Program-made: the position numbers and the translations under genes
Notes under the pieces: model-generated
Database searches by the model: none
What the model was told of the DNA's origin: nothing
What the model saw: only the letters and a program-made list of their open reading frames with translations
Shown: positions 38,018 through 60,197 of the stretch, in pieces
Numbering within the stretch: the stretch's first letter is position 1
Layout: each line of letters starts with the position of its first letter
Origin: an uncultured delta proteobacterium
GTDB taxonomy: Bacteria; Desulfobacterota; Syntrophia; Syntrophales; Smithellaceae
Reading direction: 5' to 3'
Length of the DNA: 64,000 nt
Assembly: GCA_963753975.1 (NCBI GenBank)
Contig: CAVWEH010000005.1
Span: forward strand, 608,001-672,000

Positions 38018-38911
38018 ATGAAAAAAAATATTTTCTCAAAAATCCCTCTGATTATTTTTCTCCTCTTGCTGCCTTGCGCGGGTGGGGCAAGAGAAATCGC
38101 GCCGATTGTCTCCGCCGACTGGCTTCTGACCAATCTCAAAAATCCAAAATTGATTATTCTCGATGTCCGCCGGGTGGAAGACTACCGCGAGGGACACATC
38201 CCGAAAGCGCTCAGTGCCTTTTACGGTGCATGGGCATATAAAAAAGATGGTCTTTTTGCAGAGATCCCTGATCTGGACGACCTCAATGACACCATCGGCT
38301 ACGCAGGCATCAGCCAGGATTCCTGGGTTGTGGTCACAGGCAAAGTGGACACACCCCGGTTGAGCTATCAAAGCGCCCGGGTGGCCTGTACGCTGCAATA
38401 CGCTGGTTTGGTGAATGTGGCGCTCCTCGACGGCGGCATGAACAAGTGGATCGCGGATAAAAAGCCTCTATCCACAGACATTGTCCGCACGAAAGAAACC
38501 CCCTTCCAGGGAAAATATCGAAAGGGGCACTTTGCCGATAAGGATTATATTAAGAGCCGACTGGGCAAGATCGTTCTGCTGGATGTCCGCGAACCCGAAT
38601 ATTTCACCGGCAAGAAGAAGATGGACTGTGTCCCCCAAAGGGGAAGAATTCCGGGTGCCTTTAATCTACCTACCTCCTGCGCCTTTAATAAAGACGGCAC
38701 GTTCAAGACTAAAGAGGGGTTGGCTGTGATTGCTGAGGCCGCTGCGAATAAAGATAGATCAAAGGAAATCGTCACCTACTGTGACATCGGTCAGTGCTGC
38801 CCGGTATGGTCATACCTGCTTGCCGAAGTATTGGGCTACACCAATGTCCGGCTTTATGTCGGTTCCATGCAGGAATGGATGCAGGACCCAAATGCGCCCG
38901 TTACGCGCTGA
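38018..38911 (+). CDS. exported tandem-domain rhodanese/sulfurtransferase
   Basis: Signal peptide, IVSADWL, GHIP, LLDGG, DVR, RIPGA, active loop YCDIGQC, YVGSMQEW. Confidence 0.9.
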   Translation: MKKNIFSKIPLIIFLLLLPCAGGAREIAPIVSADWLLTNLKNPKLIILDVRRVEDYREGHIPKALSAFYGAWAYKKDGLFAEIPDLDDLNDTIGYAGISQDSWVVVTGKVDTPRLSYQSARVACTLQYAGLVNVALLDGGMNKWIADKKPLSTDIVRTKETPFQGKYRKGHFADKDYIKSRLGKIVLLDVREPEYFTGKKKMDCVPQRGRIPGAFNLPTSCAFNKDGTFKTKEGLAVIAEAAANKDRSKEIVTYCDIGQCCPVWSYLLAEVLGYTNVRLYVGSMQEWMQDPNAPVTR

Positions 38912-39297: not shown

Positions 39298-40002
39298 ATG
39301 AACATCGGTGACTTGGACAAAACTTTTCATTTCATTATAAAGCGTATGGTGGAAACCGGGCGAGCTCCCCACTACACGGAAATAGCGAAAGAACTGGGCG
39401 TCTCCATGGAGGAGGGGCGGAAGATCATGCAAGAGCTTTTTACCAAGAGGGTGCCGGGATGGCTTGCTCCAAGTACGGATTTCATCGCTTCGTTCGCGCC
39501 ATTTAACAGTCAACCTACTCAGTTTCGCATCACTATCGAAGGCCGGCAGAAATGGTTTGGCCAATGAGCATTCGAATCGCTGGCGGTCTGCTGGCTTTTC
39601 CCGGGTAAAAAGGTAGAAATTGATACCCCTTGTCTTGATTGTGGGGAACCCATTCATGTGGAGATTCGAGATGGGATGATCTTGAAGGCCGAGCCAAAGG
39701 AGATAATCGGATATGTAGCTGTTCCATTTGCCAAGTGGGCTCAAGATACAAGCTATGCCTGAACGACCATGACTTTCTTCCGGTCGGAAGAACATCTTCG
39801 CAACTGGGCGCTCTTTAAGCCCGATACTGAGGAGGGGATTATTCCACTGCCTGACTTACTCAAACTCTTTTCCGGCAAAATGTTTCGCCGGAGAATGGAC
39901 CCCGACTATCTTTCCCGCATGCGGGAATATGGCCTGGATTTTTGGACAACTCTTCAAGAAATCGGCAAGGTCGGCCCTTTCTGGTCGCTGAAGAAATCAT
40001 AA
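39298..40002 (+). CDS. MerB (organomercurial lyase)-like selenoprotein, 234 aa, Sec90 and Sec155
   Basis: One frame from ATG 39298 (AGGAGG RBS) to TAA 40002, with TGA at 39565 (WFGQ-U-AFE) and 39760 (SYA-U-TTMTFFRSEEH). These match the MerB W-C-A-L-D and F-C-x-x-x-x-F-F motifs, and a SECIS-like hairpin follows each. Confidence 0.85.
39579..39595 (+). promoter_or_regulatory. SECIS-like hairpin for UGA 39565
   Basis: 11 nt after UGA: GCUGGC-GGUCU-GCUGGC (two G-U pairs); loop resembles E. coli fdhF SECIS. Confidence 0.7.
39775..39792 (+). promoter_or_regulatory. SECIS-like hairpin for UGA 39760
   Basis: 12 nt after UGA: UUCUUCC-GGUC-GGAAGAA, perfect 7-bp stem. Confidence 0.78.
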
Positions 40003-40074: not shown

Positions 40075-41106
40075 ATGTATGCCTTGAAATTTAAAGAAAG
40101 AGTTTGCGCTACCTGTCCTTCGGCCGACTGTCTCCTGAAGTGCCAGTACATGTCCTTTAGCGGACATAAAGAAGCGCATAAGGAGATGATGAAGGTTGTT
40201 CGCGGTGAGGATTCCCGCATATTGCGCGAGTGTACGACTTGTTATGCCTGCGAGGAATATTGCAGAAGAAGAAATCATCCCTTTTATCTCATCAGTGAAC
40301 GCCGGGAAGAAAAAGGCATGTTCACCGCGCCCCGCCCCATCACCAATCAGTGGATTAATATGACCAAGATGCAGGGCAAATATATGGTCGGCCAGGTGAA
40401 GGACAAGGTGCTTTCCTGCTGCTACATTCCTGCTCTGGGGATGCTGGGGCAAGGGGAAATTTTCAAGGACGTCGCAACGGCTGCCGCTTTCGGCGCGGAA
40501 TTCATGTGTCCCGCCGTCCACACTCATTTTGCCCGCATGGCGGTTATCAAAGAGCGCCTTCCTGTCGTCATTGAAAATTTTAAGAAATTAGGCGCAAAAG
40601 AGGTTATCTGCCTGCATGATGAATGCTACGGCACCTTTACTTCCATTGCCTCCGCTTACGGAATTCACGTTCCGTTTAAGCCGGTTTATTACATGGATTT
40701 TTTATTGGAAAAAATGAAAGAACTCAAAGGCAGGATCAAGCCGCTTAATATTAAAGCCGCTTATCAACGTCCCTGCTCCAACAGGCTCATTCCGGATAAA
40801 CTGCCCCTGGTGAAAAAAATCCTGAATTTAATCGGGGTCAAACTGCCCAAGAGGATATATCAGGATGAGAATTGTCTTTGCTGCGGAGAAATTATCCGGT
40901 CTGTTTCCGGCTACAAACTGGCGGATGATGTGCAAAAAAGAAATATAGACGATATGCTCGAAAGCGGTGCCGAGTATTGCGTTTTCAACTGTCCGGCTTG
41001 TCAGTCATCGCTGTCGGAGAAGGTTATCAAGAAAGGGTTGAAGCCGATCCATATTATTGATCTGTGCAAGATGGCCATTGGTGAAAAGGAAAGGGAGGTG
41101 AAGTAA
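40075..41106 (+). CDS. Fe-S/CCG-domain oxidoreductase subunit (HdrD/GlcF-like)
   Basis: CATCPSADCLLKC, CTTCYACEEYC, HDEC, QRPC, CLCCG, NCPAC. Confidence 0.82.
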   Translation: MYALKFKERVCATCPSADCLLKCQYMSFSGHKEAHKEMMKVVRGEDSRILRECTTCYACEEYCRRRNHPFYLISERREEKGMFTAPRPITNQWINMTKMQGKYMVGQVKDKVLSCCYIPALGMLGQGEIFKDVATAAAFGAEFMCPAVHTHFARMAVIKERLPVVIENFKKLGAKEVICLHDECYGTFTSIASAYGIHVPFKPVYYMDFLLEKMKELKGRIKPLNIKAAYQRPCSNRLIPDKLPLVKKILNLIGVKLPKRIYQDENCLCCGEIIRSVSGYKLADDVQKRNIDDMLESGAEYCVFNCPACQSSLSEKVIKKGLKPIHIIDLCKMAIGEKEREVK

Positions 41107-41107
41107 G

Positions 41108-42487
41108 ATGAGCGACATCCTGAAATCGCTAATCGATATCGTTGGAGAAAAAGGTGTTTCCAATACGCCTGAAGAGCTTTGGTTCTACTCGCGTGACCCC
41201 GGAGTTTTGACACCACATCTCCCCGACTACGTAGTGGCGCCTAAAACAACGGAGGAAGTGCAGAAGATCGTTTTGCTTGCCAACAGGGAAAAAATTCCCA
41301 TTGTGCCCATGGGAAACGGCATGTCCCTGACTGGTCTGGTGATCCCGTTGAGGGGCGGCATCGTTCTGGACATGAAGCGGATGAACAAAATTCTGGAGGT
41401 AAATCAAATGGCCCGCTACGCCGTGGTGGAAGGGGGAACATCGCAGGGTGTTCTCAAAGCCTACCTGCAGGATCACCATCCTCAACTACGCCACAGCATA
41501 CCCGACGCGCCGCCGGCGACAACCATCGCCGCAAATGCCGCTCTCCACGGCCAGGGCCGCCTGACCCAGCAATATGGTTTCAACTCCGATATGGTCACGG
41601 GCATGGAGGTTGTCCTGCCCACGGGCGAAGTCTGTTTGATCGGCTCTCCCTCATTGGGCCCTTACTGGTTTTCGAAGGGGCCCACGCTGCCCGACCTTTC
41701 CGGCCTCTTTCTCGGCTGGCTGGGAACGACAGGCATCATCACCAAAATCGGCCTTCGCCTCTACCCGAATAAAAAGATTCGGGACGTAGAGTTATTCGTG
41801 ACCGATCGGGTGGACATGATCCCCGACATCCTTTATAAGCTTACTCACCTGGAAATCCTGGAAGACGTGAACGTCTGGTTTCAGCCCAAACCCCTTGTGT
41901 TTCAGGGCAATTTTCACATCACCATCTTCTTTACGGGAGATACAGATGAGGAGATCGTTTTTAAGCGGCATATGATCTGGGATGCCCTGCAGGAGTATAT
42001 GGATTCCAAAGACGGAGGTTTCATGGGCGTCCAGTACATGAAAAATATGCTATTGGAGATGCCGAGCCGGGGGGTCGCCGATTTTGCCGATGTTCCGAAA
42101 GGCGGCGGATTTGAGTATTCAGGACCGATAACCATCATCGAACACTTCCCTCGCTACGCGGCCAAGGTTGTTGAACTGGCGAAGAAATACGACGTCCTGT
42201 ATGCCAGCGCGGCCCGTCTCATCTCCGGCGGGCATTGTATGATGTTCAGCATCTCTTTTGCCTTCAATCGCAATGACCCGGCTATGATGGAGCGAGTGAA
42301 GCACGCCCTGGACGAGGCCATGGCCTTCGCCTTGGAAATGGGCGGCATTCCCTGGAAACCGAATTTTGTAGAGCAGAAAATGACTCTGGAGAAAATGGAC
42401 CCCACGGCCCGGAAGCTCCTTCATATGATCAAGAAGAACCTGGATCCTCAGGGCATCATGAATCCCGGCAATTGGGAGGTAAACTAA
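41108..42487 (+). CDS. FAD-binding oxidoreductase (GlcD/D-lactate dehydrogenase family)
   Basis: PDYVVAP...EEVQKIV, GNGMSL, GMEVVLPTG, GTTGIITK, IKKNLDPQGIMNPG. Confidence 0.88.
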   Translation: MSDILKSLIDIVGEKGVSNTPEELWFYSRDPGVLTPHLPDYVVAPKTTEEVQKIVLLANREKIPIVPMGNGMSLTGLVIPLRGGIVLDMKRMNKILEVNQMARYAVVEGGTSQGVLKAYLQDHHPQLRHSIPDAPPATTIAANAALHGQGRLTQQYGFNSDMVTGMEVVLPTGEVCLIGSPSLGPYWFSKGPTLPDLSGLFLGWLGTTGIITKIGLRLYPNKKIRDVELFVTDRVDMIPDILYKLTHLEILEDVNVWFQPKPLVFQGNFHITIFFTGDTDEEIVFKRHMIWDALQEYMDSKDGGFMGVQYMKNMLLEMPSRGVADFADVPKGGGFEYSGPITIIEHFPRYAAKVVELAKKYDVLYASAARLISGGHCMMFSISFAFNRNDPAMMERVKHALDEAMAFALEMGGIPWKPNFVEQKMTLEKMDPTARKLLHMIKKNLDPQGIMNPGNWEVN

Positions 42488-43665
42488 TGGCTGACGTACA
42501 TAATATAGAACATCAAGAGATCGTCCACCGGTGTTTCCGTTGCGGATATTGTAAATTCCCGAGCGACTATGTCGATTTCAACTGCCCGTCTTACAAGGCT
42601 TTCGGATGGGATACCTATTCTGCGGGCGGGAGGATGTGGCTCATCAGAGCCTGGCTGAGTGGCGAAATTAAAACGAGCCCCCATTTTGCCGAAATACTTT
42701 ACTCCTGCGTAGCATGCGATAATTGTAAGAATCAGTGCGTTTTCCCGAAATTCAAAGATTTTCTGCCGGAAATATTCCAGGAAACTAAAGTGGAACTGGT
42801 CAACGAAGGCAGGATTCCGCCGGAGGTTCGGGATTATTTCAAGGCCGTCGCCACCAACGGCAACCCTTACAAACTGCCGCAGTCGGAAAGAGGCAAATGG
42901 ACCGAAGGAACAGAATTAAAAAAATATTCGGGTCAGGAGTATCTCTTTTATGCGGGCTGCGTCGGTTCCTACGACGAAGTGGGACAAAAGATGGCCCGCA
43001 GCGTGGGGAGTCTGCTGGTTGGCGCCGGCGTGTCCCTGGGCATTCTGGGGAGTGAAGAAACCTGTGACGGCAACGAAGTCAAAATTCTCGGAGAGATGGG
43101 TCTTTTTACGCAACTGGCCAATGACAATATCAAGAAATTTAAGTCACAGGGCGTTAAGAATATTATCACCCTTGATCCCCATGCCCTGAACGTCTTCAAG
43201 AAAGATTATCCCAAACTGGGAGGGAGCTTTAAGGTACTTCACTATACGGAAATACTGGCTGGGTTAATCAAGGCAAAAAAAATTCCCCTTTCTAATTATT
43301 CGGCGAAAGTCACCTACCACGACCCCTGCTATTTAGGCAGGCATAATCAGATTTATGGTCCTCCGCGGGAGATACTGAAATCAATTCCCGGCCTCGAATT
43401 GGTCGAAATGCGTCGTAATTCTCTGAACGCGTTTTGCTGCGGAGGGGGAGGAGGAAACTTTTTTACGGACATTTTGGGTACAGGCGTTGACAGTGCGGGC
43501 CGTGTCCGTGTTCGGGAAGCTCTGGAGACAGGCGCCAATATTATCGCTGTAGCTTGTCCGAGCTGTGCCAAAATACTTATGGATGCTGTGAAGATGGAAA
43601 AGCTGGAAGACAAGCTGGAAGTTTTGGGCATCGCCGAAATCGTCGGGAGAGCCCGCAAAAAGTGA
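42487..43665 (+). CDS. Fe-S/CCG-domain oxidoreductase subunit (GlcF/HdrD-like)
   Basis: CFRCGYC, CVACDNCKNQC, YAGC, YHDPCYLGR, CCGGGGG, ACPSC; start overlaps upstream TAA. Confidence 0.88.
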   Translation: MADVHNIEHQEIVHRCFRCGYCKFPSDYVDFNCPSYKAFGWDTYSAGGRMWLIRAWLSGEIKTSPHFAEILYSCVACDNCKNQCVFPKFKDFLPEIFQETKVELVNEGRIPPEVRDYFKAVATNGNPYKLPQSERGKWTEGTELKKYSGQEYLFYAGCVGSYDEVGQKMARSVGSLLVGAGVSLGILGSEETCDGNEVKILGEMGLFTQLANDNIKKFKSQGVKNIITLDPHALNVFKKDYPKLGGSFKVLHYTEILAGLIKAKKIPLSNYSAKVTYHDPCYLGRHNQIYGPPREILKSIPGLELVEMRRNSLNAFCCGGGGGNFFTDILGTGVDSAGRVRVREALETGANIIAVACPSCAKILMDAVKMEKLEDKLEVLGIAEIVGRARKK

Positions 43666-43679
43666 AGAAAGGAAAGGGT

Positions 43680-44210
43680 ATGGATAAAGAAGATATACTC
43701 AAGGAAGTCTATGATAAAGCGAAGGGATACGAGCTCAAAGGAGGAAACTGCGCGCAGTGCAGTATTGCCGCTATTTTCGAAATAATGGGAGTGGAAGATG
43801 AAGGAGTATTCAGAGCCGCGACAGGTTTGGCCGATGGCGTGGGCTTAAGCGGAGATGGTCATTGCGGAGCACTTTCCGGAGGGACGATGGCCATCAGTTA
43901 CTTTTTCGGCAGAAGTCGAGAAGATATCGGCAGGATGGGCAAACAGATTAAGGCCTTGCTTCTGGCAAAAAAGCTTCATGATGAATTTGTGGAGAAATTT
44001 TCCACGTGCCGGTGTGCCGATATTCAGAAAAAACAGTTTGGCCGTTTCTTTAATCTCTATGATGTGGAAGAGATGAAGGCGGCCTTTAAGGCGGGCATGC
44101 CGGAAAAATGCTCGACGCTGGTAGGAGAGACGGCGCGAATAGCCCTGAAAATTATTCTCGATGAGCAGGAAGCAAGAAAGGCAAAGCAAGATGAACTTCC
44201 TGTTTTATAG
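43680..44210 (+). CDS. C_GCAxxG_C_C family putative redox-active protein
   Basis: NCAQC, HCGALSGG, CRCADI, KCS. Confidence 0.85.
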   Translation: MDKEDILKEVYDKAKGYELKGGNCAQCSIAAIFEIMGVEDEGVFRAATGLADGVGLSGDGHCGALSGGTMAISYFFGRSREDIGRMGKQIKALLLAKKLHDEFVEKFSTCRCADIQKKQFGRFFNLYDVEEMKAAFKAGMPEKCSTLVGETARIALKIILDEQEARKAKQDELPVL

Positions 44211-44482: not shown

Positions 44483-44686
44483 TCAGGACTTCTTTATCGT
44501 TGAAATTTTAAAAGGTACATATAACGGGCAAAAACCGATCAGGCTCGTTACTATAAACACAACTGCCAGAATGCCCAGAATAATTGCCGCAACGCCCGTA
44601 ATGCTGCCTGTCAGATAAAGGATAATGACAGCTATAGCCAACAATGTTCTAATAATCCGGTCGATAGTCCCCATGTTCTTTTTCAT
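44483..44686 (-). CDS. DUF2892 (YgaP-like) small membrane protein
   Basis: MKKNMGTIDRIIR...two TM helices...GFCPLY...IST. Confidence 0.9.
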   Translation of the reverse strand: MKKNMGTIDRIIRTLLAIAVIILYLTGSITGVAAIILGILAVVFIVTSLIGFCPLYVPFKISTIKKS

Positions 44687-45021
44687 ATGCTTCTCCTTTC
44701 TTTAGCTCGGTAAATGAGGAAAATAATCATGAACACTTTGCAGGATATCGCTCATATTCCAGCAAATACCTGCCCCGGTTGCAAAATTATACACCGTTCC
44801 TAATGACCGTTTTTTTTGTCACCAATATTTCCCTCAAACACTATAAATTATCATAGTACTACTGGAAACATGATCACGATATTGAAAATGTCAACCGCTT
44901 TTTTGCTTACTTTCCACAGCGGGTTTTTTCTTCCTGTCCTAAACCGACAAACCCGTTCGCTCATGTGGAGAGCGCAGGCATGGCAATAGCCACATCCGTC
45001 TTATATTATTTTATAAAATCC

Positions 45022-45065
45022 TTGACAGAGTGGATCAGTACGTTTAGTATACCCCATAGGGTATA
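45022..45065 (+). promoter_or_regulatory. sigma70 promoter overlapped by CsoR-family operator
   Basis: TTGACA (45022-45027), 17 nt, TAGTAT (45045-45050); inverted repeat TATACCC-CATA-GGGTATA (45048-45065). Confidence 0.8.
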
Positions 45066-45066
45066 T

Positions 45067-45330
45067 ATGAATCCAGAAAGAAAAAAGGTTTCCAACCGCC
45101 TACGACGGATTGAAGGGCAAATTCGAGGACTTCAGCGTTTAATTGAGGAAGGAGCGCCCTGTATTGACATTTTAACTCAGGTATCAGCGGTTACATCTGC
45201 CATTAAGAAAACAGGTGGCGCCATATTTTCCAATTACATGAAAACATGTATAGAGGAATCTGCAGGTAATCCAAAAAAAATGCATAAAGATTTTCGTGCT
45301 GCATTATCCATGTTTATTGATTTATCCTGA
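45067..45330 (+). CDS. CsoR/RcnR family repressor, CstR-like (Cys/Cys, no His)
   Basis: NRLRRIEGQIRGLQRL...PCIDILTQVSAV...NYMKTC; probable start MNPERKK. Confidence 0.88.
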   Translation: MNPERKKVSNRLRRIEGQIRGLQRLIEEGAPCIDILTQVSAVTSAIKKTGGAIFSNYMKTCIEESAGNPKKMHKDFRAALSMFIDLS

Positions 45331-45395: not shown

Positions 45396-46658
45396 ATGGC
45401 AGGTTTCACCAAAGCTCTGATGATTCTCAATATCAAATCCGCGTATGAACGCGTTGCATCCGGCGGATGGGTTTATCTTACCTTCGTTTGCATCTTCGGT
45501 CTCCTGTTGCTCATCGGTATTGGGGCTGGAATCCACGCCTTGTTCATCGCCGGCACGCGCCATACTTACGGAACCTATCGCGAAGTTCCTGTGGCTCTCC
45601 TCATTTCCACGTATGTATATTTTGTCGTTGCCTCCACGGGACTTTGCCTCGTTTCGTCAATAGGGCATCTTTTCGGCTTTCGTCAATATGTGCCCATCGC
45701 CAAGCGCGCCATTTATCTGTCAATTATGACTATCTTGGCCGGTTTTCTGGTCATCGGACTGGAAATCGAGCATCCTTTCCGCATGGTCATATATAATATC
45801 CTCTCTCCTAACATGAGTTCCAATATTTGGTGGATGGGAACACTTTATAGTTTTGCCCTGGTTTTTCTGACTATCGAATTTATTTTTCTTTTGCAGGAAA
45901 TAAAAAATAAAAAAGCCATAGTTGTGTGTTTGCTGGGGGTAATTACCGAAGTAGCCGCCAACAGCAATCTGGGAGGCGTTTTTGCCATGATGCACGGCCG
46001 TGAATACTGGTACGGCTCCTATCTGCCCGTCTACTTTGTTGCGTCCGCCATGATGACGGGTTGTGCCTTTATTATATTTTTTTTCGTTCTGTCCTACTGG
46101 ATCAACAGGAAAACCATGGATCAGCCAACCGAAAAAGCGCTCACGTCTGTGGGAAAGCTCGCCATTCTTCTGCTCGTAATAATCATGCTTTTCACTTTCT
46201 GGAAAATGATGATTACATCTGTCGGCGGGTTGACGGAGATTGCAGCTATGAACGCGCTTATCAGCGGTCCTTATGCCTTCCGTTTCTGGGGGGTTGAAGT
46301 GTTCGGAGGGATGATTATCCCGCTTGTTTTATTGCTTATATCCAGGACAAAAAATATGATGATCATGTTTATAGCGTCGGTATTTATGATCTTCAGCATT
46401 TTTTTCATGCGCCTGGATATGGTTGTCGTAGGACTGATTGTGCCTCTATATCTCGATCTTGGCGTTGCTGAATATTCCAAGCTGTATGCGTATACGCCGA
46501 GCGTTCATGAAATTATGGTAGTTCTGGGCGGCGTCGGCTTTTGCGTTTTAGCATTCCTTTTGGGTGAGAAGATTTTTGATGGATTTAAGCATACGGAAAT
46601 CAACCATATGCCTGAGCCGATAGCGATCGATGTTAACAAAACGGAAGAAGTGCCATGA
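45396..46658 (+). CDS. NrfD/PsrC family quinol-interacting membrane subunit
   Basis: About 10 TM helices, STYVYFV, LEIEHPFR, SSNIWWMG, REYW. Confidence 0.87.
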   Translation: MAGFTKALMILNIKSAYERVASGGWVYLTFVCIFGLLLLIGIGAGIHALFIAGTRHTYGTYREVPVALLISTYVYFVVASTGLCLVSSIGHLFGFRQYVPIAKRAIYLSIMTILAGFLVIGLEIEHPFRMVIYNILSPNMSSNIWWMGTLYSFALVFLTIEFIFLLQEIKNKKAIVVCLLGVITEVAANSNLGGVFAMMHGREYWYGSYLPVYFVASAMMTGCAFIIFFFVLSYWINRKTMDQPTEKALTSVGKLAILLLVIIMLFTFWKMMITSVGGLTEIAAMNALISGPYAFRFWGVEVFGGMIIPLVLLLISRTKNMMIMFIASVFMIFSIFFMRLDMVVVGLIVPLYLDLGVAEYSKLYAYTPSVHEIMVVLGGVGFCVLAFLLGEKIFDGFKHTEINHMPEPIAIDVNKTEEVP

Positions 46659-47407
46659 AAAAAAATCGGTCCCAAGGCGGAGTGAAAGAAAAAGAGCTTC
46701 CGAAATATCCTCTTGATCAGGAACGCAGAAATTTTCTGAAGATGGGTCTTGTGATAACGGGCGTCGTAGCCTCCGGCTCTGTTTTATCTCTGATATCGAA
46801 CGTGGGGAAAGCGTATTCCTTCGATGCGTACCGAAAGAAGTATCCTTACAAGCCGCATTACAGCATGGTCATTAGGCAGGATCGCTGCATCGACTGCAAA
46901 CGATGCATGGAAGCCTGTGTGGCTACTAACCGTGTGCCCGACTATGGATGGAGGACGATGATTCTGGAAAAAAAAGTTCCCGAGTCCATGGATGAAAGAT
47001 GGGACTTTATACCGATACTATGCAACCAGTGCAATGATCCTCCCTGTGTGCGTACTTGTCCGACAATGGCAACTTATAAGGATAAAACCAACGGCATCGT
47101 CATGATGGATAATAAGAAATGTATCGGATGCAAGTCCTGCATGATGGCCTGTCCCTACGATATGCGCTATTATAACGAAGCCAAGAAAGCGATTGATAAA
47201 TGCGACTTCTGTTTTGAAGCGCGGCTTTCCAAAGGCATAAAGAACGTGGCCTGTTCGGAAGCCTGCCCCGCCGATGTCCGTGTATTCGGCGATCTGTCCG
47301 ATCCTGAAAGCAGAGTCTATGAACTTATCCACCAACTGCAAAAGCCGGTTTGGGTGTTGAGGGAAGAAGTAGGCGCCAAACCGAATATTTTTTACATGAA
47401 GGGCTAG
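46655..47407 (+). CDS. NrfC/PsrB-type 4x[4Fe-4S] protein with Tat signal
   Basis: RRNFLK, CIDCKRCMEAC, CNQCNDPPCVRTCP, CIGCKSCMMACPY, KCDFC...CSEACP. Confidence 0.9.
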   Translation: MKKNRSQGGVKEKELPKYPLDQERRNFLKMGLVITGVVASGSVLSLISNVGKAYSFDAYRKKYPYKPHYSMVIRQDRCIDCKRCMEACVATNRVPDYGWRTMILEKKVPESMDERWDFIPILCNQCNDPPCVRTCPTMATYKDKTNGIVMMDNKKCIGCKSCMMACPYDMRYYNEAKKAIDKCDFCFEARLSKGIKNVACSEACPADVRVFGDLSDPESRVYELIHQLQKPVWVLREEVGAKPNIFYMKG

Positions 47408-47418
47408 CTTAGGATAAG

Positions 47419-49239
47419 ATGAAAAAAAGTTATATTTTTCTATTTTTGTTGATATTTTTCTGCACAACGAATGTTTGCATGGCCAAGCAGGAGACTTTCT
47501 CCGACGGAGGGGGTATTCTCTATACGGAACCATTGAAGGCTGTTATTTTCCGGCATCAATACCATGTGGATGTTAAACATATTACCTGCGATAAATGCCA
47601 CAGCGGCCTCTTTGAGATGGAAGCCCTCAAAGTTCAGGGAGAAAATGATTTCACTATGAAGTCCCTGGATGAAGGAAAGTATTGCGGAGCATGTCATAAC
47701 GGGAAGGATGCTTTTGCCTCGAACACCGAGTGCACCAAATGCCACGTTCGTCTGGACGATTGGCAAGGACGAGTGGGGTATCTCAAGGGGAACCCTATGC
47801 CGTATAAAATCCCTGTTTACAATACTTCCATTTCCTTCGGGCAGGGTGAAATGAAAGTCCGCTTCAATCACGAAAAGCATTCATCGCCTTTGAGCTGCCG
47901 GGATTGCCATTCGCAGCTCTTTCGAATCAAAAAAGGTTCAAACAATATAACCCTTCTGAATCACAATCCGCAAAAATACTGTTTTGGCTGTCATGATGGG
48001 AAAGAGACCTTTTCCTGGTATAGCTGCAATAAATGCCACAAAAACTGGACGGAAATTGCCCAGGTCGGCCCCCTGAAAACAAAGGCCGACAAAGGCAGTT
48101 GCTACAAATGTCATACCAGCGCGAGCGAAATGAAAGCCCTGGTAAAACCGCCGTTAATACAGAGCGAGGGAGAGGGGTGAGCAGGACCACCTCCCCCGGT
48201 TCGGGCGGAAGATTATTACAAGGGTTATATGGTAAATCCGGCGTGGATGGGCAAGGATTTTCACCTGGGCATGGAATGCGTTTCCTGCCACAAGGGAGAT
48301 GACAAAAGCCAAACAAAGGAAGCAGCCCACGCGGGATTTGTGCGCCAGCCGTCCGATAATCTGGAAACCTGCGGCATATGTCATAAGAAGACAGCCGCAA
48401 ACTACGCCAAAGCTCTTCATTACACCAGTTTGGGACAGTATGAAGGCGTCAAGCACAGGTTTTCCGCAGAAGAACTGAAAACCTTTGACAGTAAGGTTTT
48501 TAATCAATCGTGCCGGACATGCCATGCATCCTGCGGTGATTGCCATGTCAAATCGCCGCCTGTTTCCGGCATTACCACCGGGCTCTTGCAAGGCCACAAA
48601 TTCGTAAAGAAAAACGAAGGCAAGACCTGCGCTTCCTGTCACGGCGGCCGCGTTTATCCGGAATTTACGGGAGAATACGGTGGCACACCCGATATCCATT
48701 ATCAGAAAGGCATGATTTGTGTGGATTGTCACAAAAAGACCGAAATGCACGGGGACGGCACAATGTATAAATCCAAGCAGGAAGTCAAGGAGCGCCCCCG
48801 CTGTCAGTCTTGCCACAAAGATAAAAAATTTCAGCTCGCCCACGAAATACACAAGGATACGGTTAGCTGTCAGGGCTGCCATTCGTCGGGTCCGTATCGC
48901 CAGTGCTACAGCTGTCATCTGGATACGGGATCTTCATCCAAACCGGGTTTTATTTTGGGTTTAAATCCGCATGACAAGAAGACGTTGACGACGCTGAGGC
49001 TTGTTCCAACTGTAAGGACTACATTTAATCAGGCCGGAATCAAAATGGAAAACTTCGATACCCTGCCGAACTACTGGAATTCGGCGGTGCATAACATCAC
49101 GAAACGGACGGAGCGGACACGATCCTGTGATTCCTGCCATGTGGCAAAAGAAGGATTCCTTAAGCGCGAATCGCTTATTAAGGATGGTTCAAAAGCGAAT
49201 GAGGAGTTAATTTACAACATTAAACCAAGCAGCAAGTAG
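47419..49239 (+). CDS. 17-heme cytochrome c selenoprotein, 606 aa, Sec254
   Basis: ORFs 47419-48180 (7 CxxCH) and 48229-49239 (10 CxxCH) share a frame, separated only by TGA 48178-48180 (SEGEG-U-AGPPPPV). A SECIS-like hairpin follows, and the second ORF has no signal peptide. Confidence 0.8.
48192..48209 (+). promoter_or_regulatory. SECIS-like hairpin for UGA 48178
   Basis: 11 nt after UGA: UCCCCC-GGUUC-GGG(C)GGA. Confidence 0.65.
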
Positions 49240-49253
49240 ATTAGGAGGGTTTT

Positions 49254-50147
49254 ATGAGAAAAACAAGATGGTTAAAAGCAGTACTGATTTTCACTTTGTT
49301 ACTTTTGCCGCTCGCGGCGATGGCCAGAAGCATCGATCCCATTGTTTCCACGGACTGGCTGCAAAAGAATCTGAAAAACGCAAAAATAGTCATCGTGGAT
49401 GTGCGCAAGGTGGAAGACTACAAGGCGGGCCACATTCCGGGTGCGGTCAACGTATTTTACGGCTCCTGGGCAATTAAAAAAGGCGACTTGCTCAACGAAC
49501 TGCCGCCGATTGACGACCTGGCCGATGTCATCGGAGGAGCGGGAATAGACAAAAATTCTCTGGTCGTAATTGTCGGGAAAACGGAAAAAGTTCCCGATCA
49601 GTTTGATATGACCCGCGTTACCTGGACATTGAAATATGTCGGCGTTCCCAATGTAGCCATTCTCAACGGCGGGGAGGATCAGTGGGCAAAAGAAAATAAA
49701 CCCCTATCCGAGGATATGGTAAAGGCTAAGGCAAAACCATTCAAGGCTTCTGTCAATAAAAATCTGTACGTGGATAAAGCTTTTGTGCTGGCCAAAGTCG
49801 GCAAAGTAATTATTGTGGATGCCCGTGGCCCCGCTTTCTTTGAAGGGAAAGAAAAGCTCCCTTTCGTGCCCAAAGTAGGACGAATCAAAGGAGCAGTTAA
49901 CCTCCCCGTGGGACAATTGTATACGCCGGAAGGTTTGTATAAAGCCAAGGCGGAGCTTGCTGCACTGGCCGAAAAAGCGGTGGGCAAGGATATGAAAAAA
50001 GAAATCATCGTCTATTGCGATACCGGAAAGACGTGTACTTCGTGGGCCTTTATTATGACCGATATGCTCGGTTACAAAGATGTGGGAGTCTACGACGGAT
50101 CATTTATGGAATGGGCGGCTGATCCGAGCGCACCAATCGAACCATAA
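49254..50147 (+). CDS. exported tandem-domain rhodanese/sulfurtransferase
   Basis: Signal peptide ending AMA, IVSTDWL, GHIPGA, ILNGG, active loop YCDTGKT, YDGSFMEW; paralog of 38018-38911. Confidence 0.9.
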   Translation: MRKTRWLKAVLIFTLLLLPLAAMARSIDPIVSTDWLQKNLKNAKIVIVDVRKVEDYKAGHIPGAVNVFYGSWAIKKGDLLNELPPIDDLADVIGGAGIDKNSLVVIVGKTEKVPDQFDMTRVTWTLKYVGVPNVAILNGGEDQWAKENKPLSEDMVKAKAKPFKASVNKNLYVDKAFVLAKVGKVIIVDARGPAFFEGKEKLPFVPKVGRIKGAVNLPVGQLYTPEGLYKAKAELAALAEKAVGKDMKKEIIVYCDTGKTCTSWAFIMTDMLGYKDVGVYDGSFMEWAADPSAPIEP

Positions 50148-52016: not shown

Positions 52017-52791
52017 TTACCTCACTTCATCGCCAAGCCCGATATAGTAAACTTTGGGATCTGTTCCGTATTCCGGTTTGTGGATTGCTACCTGCTGCGT
52101 ACGGATGATGTTTGTCACGGGATCTCCGGCATCTTTGATATTGCCGATCTGCCTTGCCCCCGTCGGGCACGCCTGAACACAGGCCGGCTGCATGCCGTTG
52201 TTAATCCGGTGATAACAGAAATTACATTTATCCGCCACGTGGTGGACTGGATGAAAAAATCTCATACCGTAGGGACAGGCCATGATACAGTAACCGCAAG
52301 CCAATACACCACTTCCGGTCTATCAGCACCACACCGTCGGCATTCTGGTAAGTCGCGCCTACCGGACATACCTGGACACATGAAGGCTTTTCGCATTGGT
52401 TGCAGAGTTTGGGAACGAAAAATGCCTTTTTAATTTTCCCCTGCGGAATATCTTTAAACTTACCGCGTCCCAGATCGATCCGACCGGTAGTGAATCCGTA
52501 CCGCGCCTCTTTGGGAGTATCGGCGAATACTTCTCCTTCTCCGGTTACGACATATCGTTCAACCCAGGTTCGCGAGACATCGGCATCAAAGGGGATTTCG
52601 TTTTCCAGCTTACAGGCCTTTACACAGAAACCGCAGCCGATGCATTTATAGGTATCGACGAGAAATACAAAGCGAAGGGGCGAGGTCCAGGCATGAACAT
52701 CGGGGGGCCGGAAAATTCCGTCCAGTCCTTTGACCAGCACCATGGCGGCGGTTCCTTTTATGGCCAATATTATAAAATCTCTCCTGTTCAC
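52017..52791 (-). CDS. NrfC-type 4x[4Fe-4S] protein with Tat signal, frameshifted near 52298
   Basis: MNRRDF, CIGCGFCVKAC, CNQCEKPSCVQVCP; CIG/CGYCIMACPY split by one extra T; 775 = 774+1. Confidence 0.85.
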
Positions 52792-53336: not shown

Positions 53337-55412
53337 TTAAAAACGGTAAGAAAGCGTCACAAATCCCACGTGGGACTCGTAAGAAGGATTATTATAAGCT
53401 CCCGTCAGGTATGCCCCGCTCGTGACATACTGATACCCGTCATACTGCGCATCATTATAATCATATTTTTCATAGGCATAACCTGCCGCAACGGATAGCG
53501 ATTTCGTCACATTATAGGAAAGTCTGATGAAAAAACAGGAAAGCTTGTAGCCATCCCAGTTGGAAAGATCGATATTGTCCTGAGTTCTGCCCGCCGGAAG
53601 AGGATTTGCACCCAAGAGATAGGTGTAATCGACGGAACCATCGGCCTGCAGATAGCTGTATTCGAGCAATAGAGTAAGTTTTTCCGGAACAATAAATATT
53701 TCGGCGCCCGCCGAGTAACTGTAGTTTTCGTCCTTCTGCGCTGCCGTCCAATTAAAGTTTGTCGGTGTCGGCGGCAGTGACGGGTCAACTGCGCCTGTTG
53801 TCTGCCGCTGGAACTGGTCCTGCCGGATGCGTTCATAATCGAAAGAGCCGAATAGCCTGATTCGCTTGTTGATCAGATAATCAACATCGATCAGGAATTC
53901 ATCACCCCTGTCACCGGTCAATCCTAAAATAGTATCGGGATAATTCGTTTCCCTGTGCTTGTAACTTAGGCTGATGCTGAAGTTGTCGGTGGGGAAAAAG
54001 TCCAGGCTGGCCTTATAGGTATCCCGAGTTTTTCCGGCAGCGTCGAAACGTCTGATGAAGGTTTCAATATCGGTCGGGTCAGTAATCTGGAATTCCGCTC
54101 TTCTGTCCAGCCTTTCGTATCCGATACGGGCGGTCAAAAAATCAAATCCCTTCCATCTAAGTTCGCCGCTGAAGAGATCATCCCTGTTATCGGGGATGTC
54201 TTCTCTCTCTCTGCTGATTGTTGAATGATTGTAAGCGCCAAGGAAATAAAATTTTGCCGGTAGCTGAAAACCAAGTTCCGTGCCGTATTTTACTCTCCGG
54301 TAGCTAAATAGGGTGTTGGTGAATGTTGCGGGTGTCTGGGTTGTATCCGTTATTGTAATAACATCCGATTTATTTTCCCGGTCGTCATATTTAAAGAAAA
54401 ATTTGGCATCTAGGAAAGGCAGCGGCTTCGATGTGACTGAAGTAGCGATGCTGTTTGTGTCGACCTGGCCGTTAAAGAGCGGAGTGCTCAAAGTGATGTT
54501 GTTCAGTCCTGTGGCGACAACATATGAATTACTCAACAGGGCATCCGATTTGGCGCTGGCCGTAGCCAGATCAACATTGAACTTGCTGTTTAAAGGCAAT
54601 TTAAGCGCGCCCTTGAGGTTAACTTTGTAGTAGTTGTTATCCGGCGGCATCGAATATGTATCTGTCACCGACGCCGTAGTACCATTAGAGGGGTTGCGGA
54701 AATAAAGGTTTGTGTTGGAGTCGGTGAAGCTGCTGTAAAAGTAGCCCAGGGAAATGTATAAGGGATTGTGGACATATCCAGCCAGCAAATTAATGCTGTT
54801 TGTTTTGTAATCAATCGGTGCCGGAAGCTCTATAGCAATCCCGCCAGGCGTTGTTCCCGCGGCACCGAGGGGATAAATGCCCGCTCGTTCATCTGCAGCC
54901 ACGGAGAAATCCACGAAAAAGGGCTTCAAGACATCGAGCTTGAATCCAGCACCGTAATCTTTCCGTTTTGTCGAGTAATCGAATGTATTCCAGGTACTGG
55001 TATTAGTGCTGGGCGGATGGGTGGGGTAGGTCAGATTGTTAGTCCCCGCGCCTGAATACAACGTTAGCGCATCATAGGTGAAATTGTGGGGAATTTCATC
55101 GTAGTTAACGTTGAACTTGAAGGCTCCCCATTTCCCGCCTTCCAGGTTATAACTCTGAGTATCGTAGAACATGTTACGGCTGTAGAAATCCACATAATAT
55201 TTATCGTCATCATATTTGATTTTAACGTCGCCGTAGAGGCCATCCTGGATGTCTCCGTATTCGTTAAATTTAGCTTTATTGCCGTTGATGTGGGTGAGAG
55301 TGCCCTGCGCGCTGATTTCACCGGAAAATTTATCCTCCTGCTCTTCGGCAAAGGCCGGACTCAAGGAGAACAAACCGAGTAAAAGAACTGATAAAAATAT
55401 TTGTCTTTTCAT
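53337..55412 (-). CDS. MtrB/PioB family outer-membrane beta-barrel
   Basis: Signal peptide MKRQIFL...AFA, AKFNEY, PAPIDY, PPDN, alternating beta strands, C-terminal LSYRF; adjacent to decaheme gene. Confidence 0.85.
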   Translation of the reverse strand: MKRQIFLSVLLLGLFSLSPAFAEEQEDKFSGEISAQGTLTHINGNKAKFNEYGDIQDGLYGDVKIKYDDDKYYVDFYSRNMFYDTQSYNLEGGKWGAFKFNVNYDEIPHNFTYDALTLYSGAGTNNLTYPTHPPSTNTSTWNTFDYSTKRKDYGAGFKLDVLKPFFVDFSVAADERAGIYPLGAAGTTPGGIAIELPAPIDYKTNSINLLAGYVHNPLYISLGYFYSSFTDSNTNLYFRNPSNGTTASVTDTYSMPPDNNYYKVNLKGALKLPLNSKFNVDLATASAKSDALLSNSYVVATGLNNITLSTPLFNGQVDTNSIATSVTSKPLPFLDAKFFFKYDDRENKSDVITITDTTQTPATFTNTLFSYRRVKYGTELGFQLPAKFYFLGAYNHSTISREREDIPDNRDDLFSGELRWKGFDFLTARIGYERLDRRAEFQITDPTDIETFIRRFDAAGKTRDTYKASLDFFPTDNFSISLSYKHRETNYPDTILGLTGDRGDEFLIDVDYLINKRIRLFGSFDYERIRQDQFQRQTTGAVDPSLPPTPTNFNWTAAQKDENYSYSAGAEIFIVPEKLTLLLEYSYLQADGSVDYTYLLGANPLPAGRTQDNIDLSNWDGYKLSCFFIRLSYNVTKSLSVAAGYAYEKYDYNDAQYDGYQYVTSGAYLTGAYNNPSYESHVGFVTLSYRF

Positions 55413-55423
55413 CGTTATACCTT

Positions 55424-56347
55424 TTACCGGAGAAAGTATTGTCCCCTCACCGAAGGCCCCATGCTTCCATGAATGTTGGTATGGCAATTCAGGCAACCGC
55501 GGGCAATCATCCTGTTGGATGCAGAACCCTGGAATGTTTCAAACCTGGTGTAAATTGTTCCGGGATGGCGAGTGGCGTCGTGGCAGCTCTGACAGAGCAA
55601 TGGCGGCTTCGAGATTAGAAGTTTCCCGTGATTGCTGCCGTGGGGCACGTGGCAGGTCAGACAATTTTCGGCAACCGGCGGATGTTCCCACAGGAATGGC
55701 CCACGCTTTTCGGCATGACACTGGAAACAGAGTTCATTTACCGTGTCCGCCTTTATCATATTCGGCCCTGATGAGCCGTGCTGGTCATGACACTGGGTGC
55801 ATTTTACGAGGCCTTCCTTCACCGGATGATGCGATTGTTTATTGACTTGAGCTCGAATATCGGCATGGCAGGTGAAGCAAAGAGCCGGTTCACTGGTCTT
55901 TAAATTGTATTTCGTTCCGGAGTGTCCGCTGTGGCAATCACTGCAGGAAACCCCGTTGACTTTATGTCTGCTCAGATCCCAAAAAGGTACGGCTCTCGAA
56001 TCCTGATGACAGGAGAGGCATTTGGCCTGCTTTATTTCCGGAGCATCATTCTTCGCGAAGGCAATCAAGCCGGCTCTCTGAGTGCCGCCTGTCTGTACAT
56101 GCGCAAGCCCCGGACCGTGACATGCTTCACAACCATAGCTGTTGGCTGGATTTCCGGGAATTGCCGTCTTGGAGTGTGTTGATTTCAAATAACTATCATA
56201 ATTTTTTTGGTGACAGGCCCGGCAGACGTCGATACCGGCATAATCATCAGCGGCAGCCGCGGATTGTTGAAAACCTACTGTTATTATGATCAGAAGGGAA
56301 AAGATAAAAAGAGAAAACAGCAAACTTTTGATTTTTTTTATCTTCAT
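55424..56347 (-). CDS. DmsE/MtrA family periplasmic decaheme cytochrome c
   Basis: 10 CxxCH, CEACHGPG, SHHPV, CFQCHAEKRGPFLWEHPPV, PHGS, CHTNIHGS. Confidence 0.93.
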   Translation of the reverse strand: MKIKKIKSLLFSLFIFSLLIIITVGFQQSAAAADDYAGIDVCRACHQKNYDSYLKSTHSKTAIPGNPANSYGCEACHGPGLAHVQTGGTQRAGLIAFAKNDAPEIKQAKCLSCHQDSRAVPFWDLSRHKVNGVSCSDCHSGHSGTKYNLKTSEPALCFTCHADIRAQVNKQSHHPVKEGLVKCTQCHDQHGSSGPNMIKADTVNELCFQCHAEKRGPFLWEHPPVAENCLTCHVPHGSNHGKLLISKPPLLCQSCHDATRHPGTIYTRFETFQGSASNRMIARGCLNCHTNIHGSMGPSVRGQYFLR

Positions 56348-59690: not shown

Positions 59691-60197
59691 TTACGATTTG
59701 TTTTGTGACGCCAATGTTTTGAGATAATCGATCAGCATTAGCGCGTCTGCGGCCACTAAACGGCCGATTGGTCCAGTGCTATAAACGGCGCCTTCGATGG
59801 TGCCATCCGGTCTGATAATGAAGCCGGTTGCATGGAGGAACAATTTCTTATCGTCGTAAAAGGCCCCGGTCATGCCGGCAAAGTTCTTTGCATCCATACC
59901 GTATGCCAACGGGAAGGTCAGTTTACGGCGTTCAACCATCTTTTGGGCTTCTTCCAGGTTATCGATAGAAGCGCCGATAATTTTGATGCCCTTTTCACTG
60001 AATTCATTAAGACGTCCCTGAAAATCAGCTAACTGCTGATTGCAGAATGGTCACCAGCGTCCCCTGTAAACGAGCAAGACCCACCAGTTTCCGCTCTCTT
60101 TCTCGGGCAGGGTCAACGTTGTGCCGTCGATAAGCTTGAATTCCATCTTGGGGAAAAGATCGCCACCGTCAAGTTTCTTCATTTCTGTCTGAGCCAT
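59691..60197 (-). CDS. peroxiredoxin-like (AhpC/TSA, redoxin) selenoprotein, 168 aa, UxxC motif (Sec49)
   Basis: MAQTEMKKLDGGDLFPKM...LLVYRGRW-U-PFCNQQL; TGA at 60053-60051 is in frame with ORF 59691-59939; AAGGAGG RBS. Confidence 0.88.
60023..60041 (-). promoter_or_regulatory. SECIS-like hairpin for UGA 60053
   Basis: 9 nt after UGA: AAUCAGC-AGUUA-GCUGAUU, perfect 7-bp stem. Confidence 0.65.

Follow-up and report, generated by a model that had tools for sequence, protein, structure and literature searches.

Do two adjacent open reading frames (ORFs) for multiheme cytochromes c encode two proteins, or a single one whose intervening TGA is read as selenocysteine (Sec)? The question is raised by a locus at 47419..49239 on the forward (+) strand of a 64,000-nucleotide (nt) stretch of DNA from an uncultured delta proteobacterium of the Smithellaceae (assembly GCA_963753975.1, contig CAVWEH010000005.1, positions 608,001 to 672,000); this whole stretch is referred to here as the window, and coordinates follow its numbering unless a contig is named. 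An earlier note on this DNA had proposed that a 7-heme and a 10-heme ORF are joined across the TGA into a 17-heme selenocytochrome. We estimate a probability of about 0.93 that the two frames are one gene in which UGA254 is read as Sec; the single chain would be exported by way of one N-terminal signal peptide and matured to a 17-heme periplasmic cytochrome.

Translation confirmed the layout described in the earlier note, with both ORFs in one frame and a single TGA in the linker between them. The gene comprises 606 codons with 17 CXXCH motifs, and the only stops within 47419-49239 (+) are the TGA of codon 254 (48178..48180), in the context SEGEG-TGA-AGPPPPV, and a terminal TAG. Seven motifs (C57, C89, C105, C160, C188, C203 and C228) precede the TGA and ten follow it, and together they hold all cysteines of the mature protein (34/34), with none elsewhere. 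A hydrophobic leader, read by eye, forms a probable Sec-pathway signal peptide (MKKSYIFLFLLIFFCTTNVCMA, 47419..47484, +) at the start of the first frame. The downstream ORF as called (48229-49239) begins MVNPAWMGKDF, with no hydrophobic leader by eye, and its ATG, 16 codons past the TGA, is not conserved in homologues; no start codon is conserved after the TGA among them, while the peptide from the TGA to the first ATG is. The contention that this ORF lacks a signal peptide and depends on read-through is further supported by uninterrupted homologues, which form a single unit with a leader. Metagenome contigs from three runs of three studies bridge 48178-48180 with no difference there among those listed (82 further differences are not among these, and no single piece covers the whole gene); another run, X6, does not cover the site.

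Database matches of the protein are nearly all 335-351 residues long and start just past the stop position, indicating that the split gene call is general. The uninterrupted homologues are few (387-420 residues) and contain a signal peptide, one heme, the same linker and ten hemes; because they hold all of these in one protein, the decaheme part forms a single unit with the linker and heme 7. Whole genomes were also searched in all six frames without halting at stop codons; the search took in 41 relatives, 301 genomes of the order and 401 of the phylum, the last two sets overlapping in six genomes. Among the 41 relatives, all matches spanning the site hold one TGA (19/19). At the order level, 143 genomes have a match, and in the 140 spanning matches among the 150 listed (eight more were found) the site is TGA in 137, one of which holds two, lacks a stop in three, and is never TAA or TAG (0/140). 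At the phylum level, with matches in 46 genomes, the spanning matches again have one TGA (45/45) and no TAA or TAG. A scan across phyla, with an alignment of Cys-type proteins as query against species-representative genomes, gave at least 584 confirmed relatives from Chloroflexota, Desulfobacterota, Actinomycetota, Bacillota, Calditrichota, Phycisphaerae and others; in the best 80 of these loci the codon is TGA in 75, TGT or TGC in three and not assignable in two. One relative with the TGA form (L154) belongs to an isolate, Anoxynatronum buryatiense. Wherever a TGA-bearing locus was read, the TGA occupies the identical aligned position, as the U of the motif G-E-G-U-[AG]-G, and it is retained down to ~31% identity. 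The earlier note had expected homologues, if its reading were wrong, to be two genes with TAA or TAG stops and a separate signal peptide on the second; such an arrangement was not encountered, as TAA and TAG never occur at the site and the uninterrupted homologues are single units. Two loci stand somewhat apart: L080 (G197:C25:7672-8835) is a homologue with two in-frame TGAs, and L017 (G013:C1:47188-49003), whose match is split and includes an additional TAA, probably represents a broken copy.

In more distant relatives, cysteine appears in place of Sec, which the earlier note had named, beside a conserved TGA, as what the linker region of homologues might hold. It stands at the Sec column, or one column beside it, in 12 of the 36 distant or uninterrupted homologues aligned (P0131, 136, 137, 143, 144, 146, 152, 161, 168, 173, 174 and 188), in forms such as GEG-C-GG, ES-C-GG, GE-CC-GG and similar, with W, Y, H, M, Q, A, S or R as the other residues found there. 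The cross-phylum loci L123, L141 and L145 likewise have Cys at this position. On a FastTree phylogeny of 181 rows, the Cys rows form seven separate groups among 42 Sec groups, and a minimum of 24 changes is required among the three states; as the database proteins in the tree were chosen for being uninterrupted, the proportions of the states carry no meaning, and we left the direction of change uninferred. The genome also holds what is needed to insert Sec: a tRNA-Sec (anticodon tca), a SelA match of 507 bits (C5:598760-599854, ~8 kb before the start of the window), a SelB wing-domain match of 72.9 bits, and a SelD match of 383 bits that is of the Sec type and itself has one in-frame TGA (G000 C5:32823-33752, +).

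Downstream of the TGA, the transcript can form a small hairpin at 48192..48209 (+; UCCCCCGGUUCGGGCGGA), a putative Sec insertion sequence (SECIS)-type element that may guide SelB. It has 7 bp with one bulged C, a GUU loop and a predicted energy of -9.3 kcal/mol, and follows an 11-nt spacer (48181-48191), the distance given in the earlier note. Because its own stability does not exceed that of dinucleotide shuffles (z 0.23, 0.57 and -0.43), folding of the single sequence was rejected as SECIS evidence, and the significance of the hairpin rests solely on comparison across genomes. In that comparison it starts 11 nt past the TGA in all groups, and 9 nt past it in three paralogues. The 41 unique close sequences, which have a six-nucleotide loop (GGUUCG being the alternative loop of the present hairpin) and were tallied apart from the triloop set, form a hairpin UCC(G/C)CC-6 nt-GGCGGA. 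Its stem shows no variation at fourfold-degenerate sites (T 41/41, G 41/41), while all four bases occur at each of three such sites in the spacer. Homologues at 31-41% identity build the stem from other letters (GGCUCC-GUU-GGAGCC, GCCUCC..GGAGGC, ACCUCC..GGAGGU and CCCUCC..GGAGGG). In 79 triloop-type sequences, left after three paralogues were dropped from the 82 that fit the register (at least 5/6 pairs) among 129 unique TGA sequences, both sides have changed in five of the six pairs (45 cells), a count not inflated by this choice; 96.8% of cells are paired, a percentage that the register-based choice does inflate. None of 500 shuffles reached the observed covariation (0.309, versus 0.004-0.042 for slid controls). 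All 132 sequences tabulated (53 + 79) contain GU in the loop. The proposal of a hairpin 11 nt past the TGA is thus borne out, as a covarying element.

This hairpin resembles the SECIS of the E. coli fdhF type in its small size, in its 11-nt placing and in having G and U at the apex of the stem-loop, but differs in stem sequence and in that the entire stem codes for a conserved peptide (PPPVKAE or VAPLEP). The fdhF figures used here, 11 nt past the UGA and G and U in the loop, were reportedly given by Liu and colleagues in 1998. Comparable hairpins are found in two known selenoprotein genes of this genome, one MerB-like and one of the AhpC/TSA type, both within the window. A strict genome scan for perfect stems missed the 17-heme gene, owing to the bulge, and returned candidates of MerB-like, peroxiredoxin and OsmC-like type. 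The MerB-like (alkylmercury lyase family) ORF (39298-39759, +; PF03243, E 7.7e-14) has a TGA at 39565-39567, within FGQ-U-AFE, followed in the strict scan by an 11-nt spacer and a hairpin with a GUC loop, and is probably a known selenoprotein type. The AhpC/TSA-type peroxiredoxin (59694-60197, -; PF00578, E 1e-21) has its TGA at 60051-60053, in the motif RW-U-PFC, then a hairpin with an AGUUA loop, and is a probable Prx-like selenoprotein. The OsmC-like ORF, with a TGA in AATAA-U-MMG, lies outside the window (C4:245784-246374, -). The three paralogues with the 9-nt spacing (L077-L079, in G153, G163 and G278) are second copies of the cytochrome at 46-49% identity, with the motif G-[YH]-G-U-AGPPPRV, the hairpin CCUCCG-CGGGUUA-CGGAGG and, in each, a distant rhodanese homologue downstream.

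Several observations count against reading the TGA as Sec, or against the importance of the residue. The hairpin of the window is unexceptional in stability, and six of the 129 unique TGA sequences match neither register. At the Sec position, close non-Sec variants lack Cys and instead have Ala, Arg, Trp, Ser or Tyr; in L062 (G257), L063 (G056) and L064 (G093) the codon is replaced by GCA (Ala), CGA (Arg) or TGG (Trp). Loss of Sec along with the machinery does not explain these variants, as SelA persists in G056 and G093; none was found in G257, which is 74% complete. Since a non-Sec variant coexists with SelA in two of these three genomes, the residue seems dispensable while the cytochrome is retained, and such variants speak against an indispensable role for Sec in every lineage. 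Their hairpins are whole (GCA, TGG) or have one mismatch (CGA), which fits recent loss of the Sec codon; for the GEGCGG-type Cys loci, the hairpin has two mismatches in one of two.

Could the TGA nevertheless be a stop? A true or regulated leaky stop, yielding a 7-heme cytochrome and a 10-heme protein that is started separately or made by near-cognate read-through, without selenium, would suit the splitting of the gene by gene callers everywhere, the ATG 16 codons downstream and the unremarkable folding of the single sequence. We nonetheless give it very little credence: the codon is always TGA and never TAA or TAG, the peptide between it and the first ATG is conserved and that ATG is not, the second half appears by eye to lack a leader, and a covarying hairpin at fixed spacing, Cys homologues and complete Sec machinery accompany it. 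The idea that the TGA stems from faulty sequencing or assembly, or from a recent nonsense mutation in a pseudogene, has nothing specific in its favour beyond the one relative with an extra TAA (G013) that looks broken, and is contradicted by the identical codon in more than 130 other genomes and by contigs of three independent runs that bridge the site without a listed difference; it is the least credible of the readings we weighed. Both are practically excluded, and insertion of Sec at the TGA is instead borne out by the constancy of the codon's position, the covarying hairpin, the distant Cys homologues and the complete machinery.

What kind of protein would then result? The conserved unit is, on the predicted reading, an 11-heme selenoprotein consisting of one heme, a Gly-rich Sec loop with the motif GEG-U-[AG]G and a decaheme domain. 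Its first heme is heme 7 of the present protein (CYKCH, 48100..48114, +), whose C7, C10 and H11 are invariant in the homologue alignment, and the decaheme domain (hemes 8-17) spans 48181..49236 (+). Ahead of this unit are two c7-type triheme domains (hemes 1-6; 47527..48045, +), a lineage-specific N-terminal fusion. The earlier description of the N-terminus as two c7-type triheme repeats was correct: the two domains make up residues 37-209, PF14522 matches at E 1.7e-41 (140.3 bits), TIGR04257 matches in two stretches (144.3 bits against a cut-off of 40), and PDB 3ov0 matches at E 2.3e-39, phmmer against PDB sequences having matched the c7 part only. The 17-heme selenocytochrome of the earlier note therefore stands for this gene but not as the conserved unit: the 17-heme form, with open frames of 604-611 residues, accounts for 13 of the 140 order-level rows that span the site, all in the window's family, and it co-occurs with an upstream NrfC, plus NrfD where the flank reaches. 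The note's placement of Sec at the end of a long heme wire did not hold, as Sec lies between hemes 7 and 8, in a loop modelled at low confidence.

An AlphaFold2 (AF2) model of the core has a mean predicted local distance difference test (pLDDT) of 89.4 and a predicted template modelling score of 0.86, with lower values in the coil that bears Sec (69 and 58 for the blocks from residue 21 to 40). Its decaheme domain is closest among solved folds to octaheme tetrathionate reductase (OTR; 1sp3_A), with Z 9.9 and a root-mean-square deviation of 4.1 over 262 aligned residues (model residues 58-385); the next match in a wide search (VIA) has Z 4.5, leaving OTR the only clear one. A Foldseek search of the PDB ranked OTR first at E 0.057, with nothing reaching E <= 0.001. 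Matches in a protein atlas were limited to generic cytochrome clusters of 311-452 residues. Conserved residues outside the heme motifs comprise nine His (H61, 83, 113, 172, 206, 223, 254, 257 and 337, core numbering), R126, D204, R306 and, less strictly, M211. Because nine such His face 11 core hemes, at least one core heme probably has an open or unusual distal site. Sec itself follows the first core CXXCH by 22 residues, with no conserved His between them.

The nearest functional precedent is MccSep, or ExtKL (GSU2937-2936; NF040886; PDB 9wt8-9wtc), of Geobacter sulfurreducens (Mihara et al., Sci Adv 2026; PMC13510729), a pentaheme Sec enzyme with a rhodanese neighbour that reduces polysulfide and selenite (PMC13510729). 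Like the present protein, MccSep is a periplasmic multiheme cytochrome c with a single Sec; in both, annotation treats the UGA as the end of one ORF ahead of another, a SECIS-like hairpin is present, and the gene cluster includes a rhodanese. MccSep differs in having five hemes and an Ig-like stem, in contrast to an OTR-like fold and an 11-heme core (17 in total); it carries Sec close to the C-terminus, in DGUP, and not close to the N-terminus, in GEGU[AG]G; and it has a heme-ligating Cys239, whereas no Cys lies outside CXXCH here. NF040886 (ExtKL) found no match at E <= 0.01 on the protein, nor across the genome, and a profile search of the PDB matched at the level of heme motifs only, 9wt8 reaching E 0.002. 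The neighbouring rhodanese matches the ExtH model weakly, at 84 bits, below its 200-bit cut-off. As far as the family models tell, the protein is not MccSep/ExtKL, nor any other heme selenoprotein family listed in review. Among these families, a 2026 review (PMC13188914) lists Sec-containing members of TIGR04315 (OTR) and counts the MtrB/PioB-type family (GSU2204) among selenoproteins; neither TIGR04315 nor NF041027 (GSU2204) matched in the protein or genome.

OTR of Shewanella oneidensis (PDB 1sp3) is alike in fold and is a periplasmic sulfur-compound reductase, but has eight hemes where the aligned domain here has ten. In a weak profile alignment (10.7 bits), the OTR stretch GKKN is an insertion absent here and OTR C64 has no Cys counterpart; we take these to be the active-site Lys56 and Cys64 of OTR, after Mowat et al. 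2004. Dodecaheme c7 polymers of the GSU1996 type (PDB 3ov0; TIGR04257) resemble residues 37-209, the two triheme domains, but lack Sec, and their counterpart here is only an N-terminal add-on, absent from most family members.

The genes around the cytochrome bear on its possible role. Immediately downstream is a periplasmic tandem rhodanese (49254..50147, +; PF00581, E 1.1e-34) with a leader and an invariant active-site Cys255 (YCDTGKT). Upstream, identified by family-model matches, are an NrfC/DsrO-type periplasmic 4Fe-4S subunit (46655..47407, +) and an NrfD-type membrane quinol-interacting subunit (45396..46658, +); on these subunits the DsrO model scores 168 bits and DsrP gives a weak match, both below cut-off. 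A repressor of the CsoR/RcnR family (44965..45330, +; PF02583, E 2.6e-25) lies directly upstream of the operon and is its possible regulator. By eye, it has a Tyr four residues before the second Cys; with Tyr instead of the His of copper-sensing CsoR, it may, we presume, be a persulfide-type (CstR-like) sensor. The upstream NrfD and NrfC genes and the six extra c7-type hemes are specific to the window's lineage, and in 26 of 30 order-level loci the cytochrome is followed by a rhodanese homologue of the same orientation. Two homologues bring the partners still closer: P0169 is a cytochrome fused to rhodanese domains, and P0175 has a partial rhodanese-like N-terminus.

We suspect that the function is that of a Sec-dependent reductase of sulfur or selenium compounds, which probably acts on sulfur compounds. 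The clues are the linkage and fusion to rhodanese, the OTR-like fold, the nine conserved non-motif His for 11 core hemes, the absence of Cys outside CXXCH and the coil nature of the Sec loop (pLDDT 58-69); the mechanism is modelled on MccSep, which has been shown to reduce polysulfide and selenite. SelB and Sec-tRNA(Sec) would decode UGA254, guided by the small hairpin 11 nt downstream. Electrons from menaquinol would pass through NrfD/NrfC and the c7 wire to the decaheme domain. The selenolate, on a mobile loop, would attack sulfane sulfur (in polysulfide, thiosulfate or tetrathionate) or selenite, with the periplasmic rhodanese persulfide supplying part of the substrate to Sec, and the Se-S adduct would be reduced at a nearby heme without a distal histidine, releasing sulfide. 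We put this quinol-fed, rhodanese-aided reduction by a mobile selenolate at a shade better than even, and the whole, Sec insertion together with a sulfur or selenium reductase mechanism, moderately better than even as the best explanation of the locus. Three points tell against the functional part. Across phyla, a rhodanese homologue lies within 2.5 kb in only 18 of the best 80 loci, although distant homologues may have escaped this tblastn search with the window's rhodanese; the structural alignment with OTR begins at model residue 58 and leaves the Sec loop uncovered; and the position of Sec relative to the hemes comes from a loop modelled at low confidence.

If Sec is indeed inserted, it might instead bind the iron of one heme as its distal axial ligand, a role that the earlier note had set beside that of a catalytic selenol; the result would be a natural His/Sec heme in which selenium tunes the potential or gates electrons. 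Hemes with His/Cys ligation are found in DsrJ, TsdA and MccSep. The shortage of conserved distal His (nine for 11 core hemes), the 22 residues without a conserved His between the first core CXXCH and Sec, and the possible ligands Cys, His, Met and Tyr at the Sec column of distant homologues would all agree with such a role, as would the resemblance of the operon to DsrJOP through the sub-threshold DsrO and DsrP matches. Yet Ala, Arg, Trp, Ser and Gln, which cannot ligate iron, also occur at this column, the Sec loop is Gly-rich and modelled at low confidence, and in the only solved Sec cytochrome it is Cys that ligates while Sec is free (PMC13510729); we therefore view ligation as unlikely. 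Less likely again is that Sec is real but serves a substrate other than sulfur (nitrite, hydroxylamine, arsenic or metal oxides), or that the protein is a mere wire to the neighbouring porin-cytochrome conduit. Enzymes of the OTR fold are promiscuous toward nitrogen and sulfur substrates (PMC13510729), an MtrB/PioB porin with an MtrA-like cytochrome is 4 kb away, and the rhodanese is not universal across phyla; but linkage and fusion to rhodanese recur, and electron transfer needs no selenol or thiol, yet the TGA is kept down to ~31% identity.

Reduction of sulfane sulfur or selenite by a mobile selenolate remains the reading we prefer, and we group the protein with those multiheme selenocytochromes that are associated with rhodanese and the chemistry of sulfur. 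A bolder version, to which we assign a low probability, would make it the first heme-selenium enzyme of the tetrathionate-reductase fold, in which a selenolate on an N-terminal arm swings between the rhodanese persulfide and an open or Sec-ligated heme, giving a molybdenum-free, quinol-linked sulfur or selenium reductase in many anaerobic phyla and maybe the first natural His/Sec-ligated heme. We found no description of the family in the literature searched, including the parts of PMC13188914, PMC5029168 and PMC13326102 covered by term searches; the BSepDB family table or Haft and Tolstoy 2025 might name it. Public names, 'cytochrome c3 family protein' or 'hypothetical protein', cover the C-terminal half only. 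If the reading is correct, hundreds of genomes carry a mis-split selenoprotein, which argues for a Sec-aware family model, and the family would be a second, unrelated solution, after MccSep, to combining selenium with multiple hemes. It would also provide syntrophic and other anaerobes with a candidate route, free of molybdenum, to the reduction of sulfur or selenium compounds, with a bearing on sulfur cycling and selenium demand in methanogenic and sediment communities.

The wider surroundings of the operon hold further redox genes. On the other strand downstream are a second NrfD/NrfC/c3 set and an MtrB/PioB porin with a multiheme cytochrome. The NrfC-like 4Fe-4S gene of this set (52017-52791, -) is split into overlapping frames, 52228-52791 and 52017-52304; the break, a frameshift or an error of assembly, falls within ...DRKWCIG / CGYCIMACPYG.... 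The MtrB/PioB-type outer-membrane porin (53337-56347, -; PF11854, E 3.8e-89) adjoins the multiheme cytochrome, which has paired CXXCH motifs, so that a porin-cytochrome conduit lies beside the Sec cytochrome operon. On the upstream side, a second tandem rhodanese gene (38018-38911, +) is found 8 kb away; between it and the operon are CCG/FAD-oxidase/Fe-S genes (40075-43665), a gene for a C_GCAxxG_C_C protein (43554-44210) and one for a YgaP-like membrane protein (44483-44686, -).

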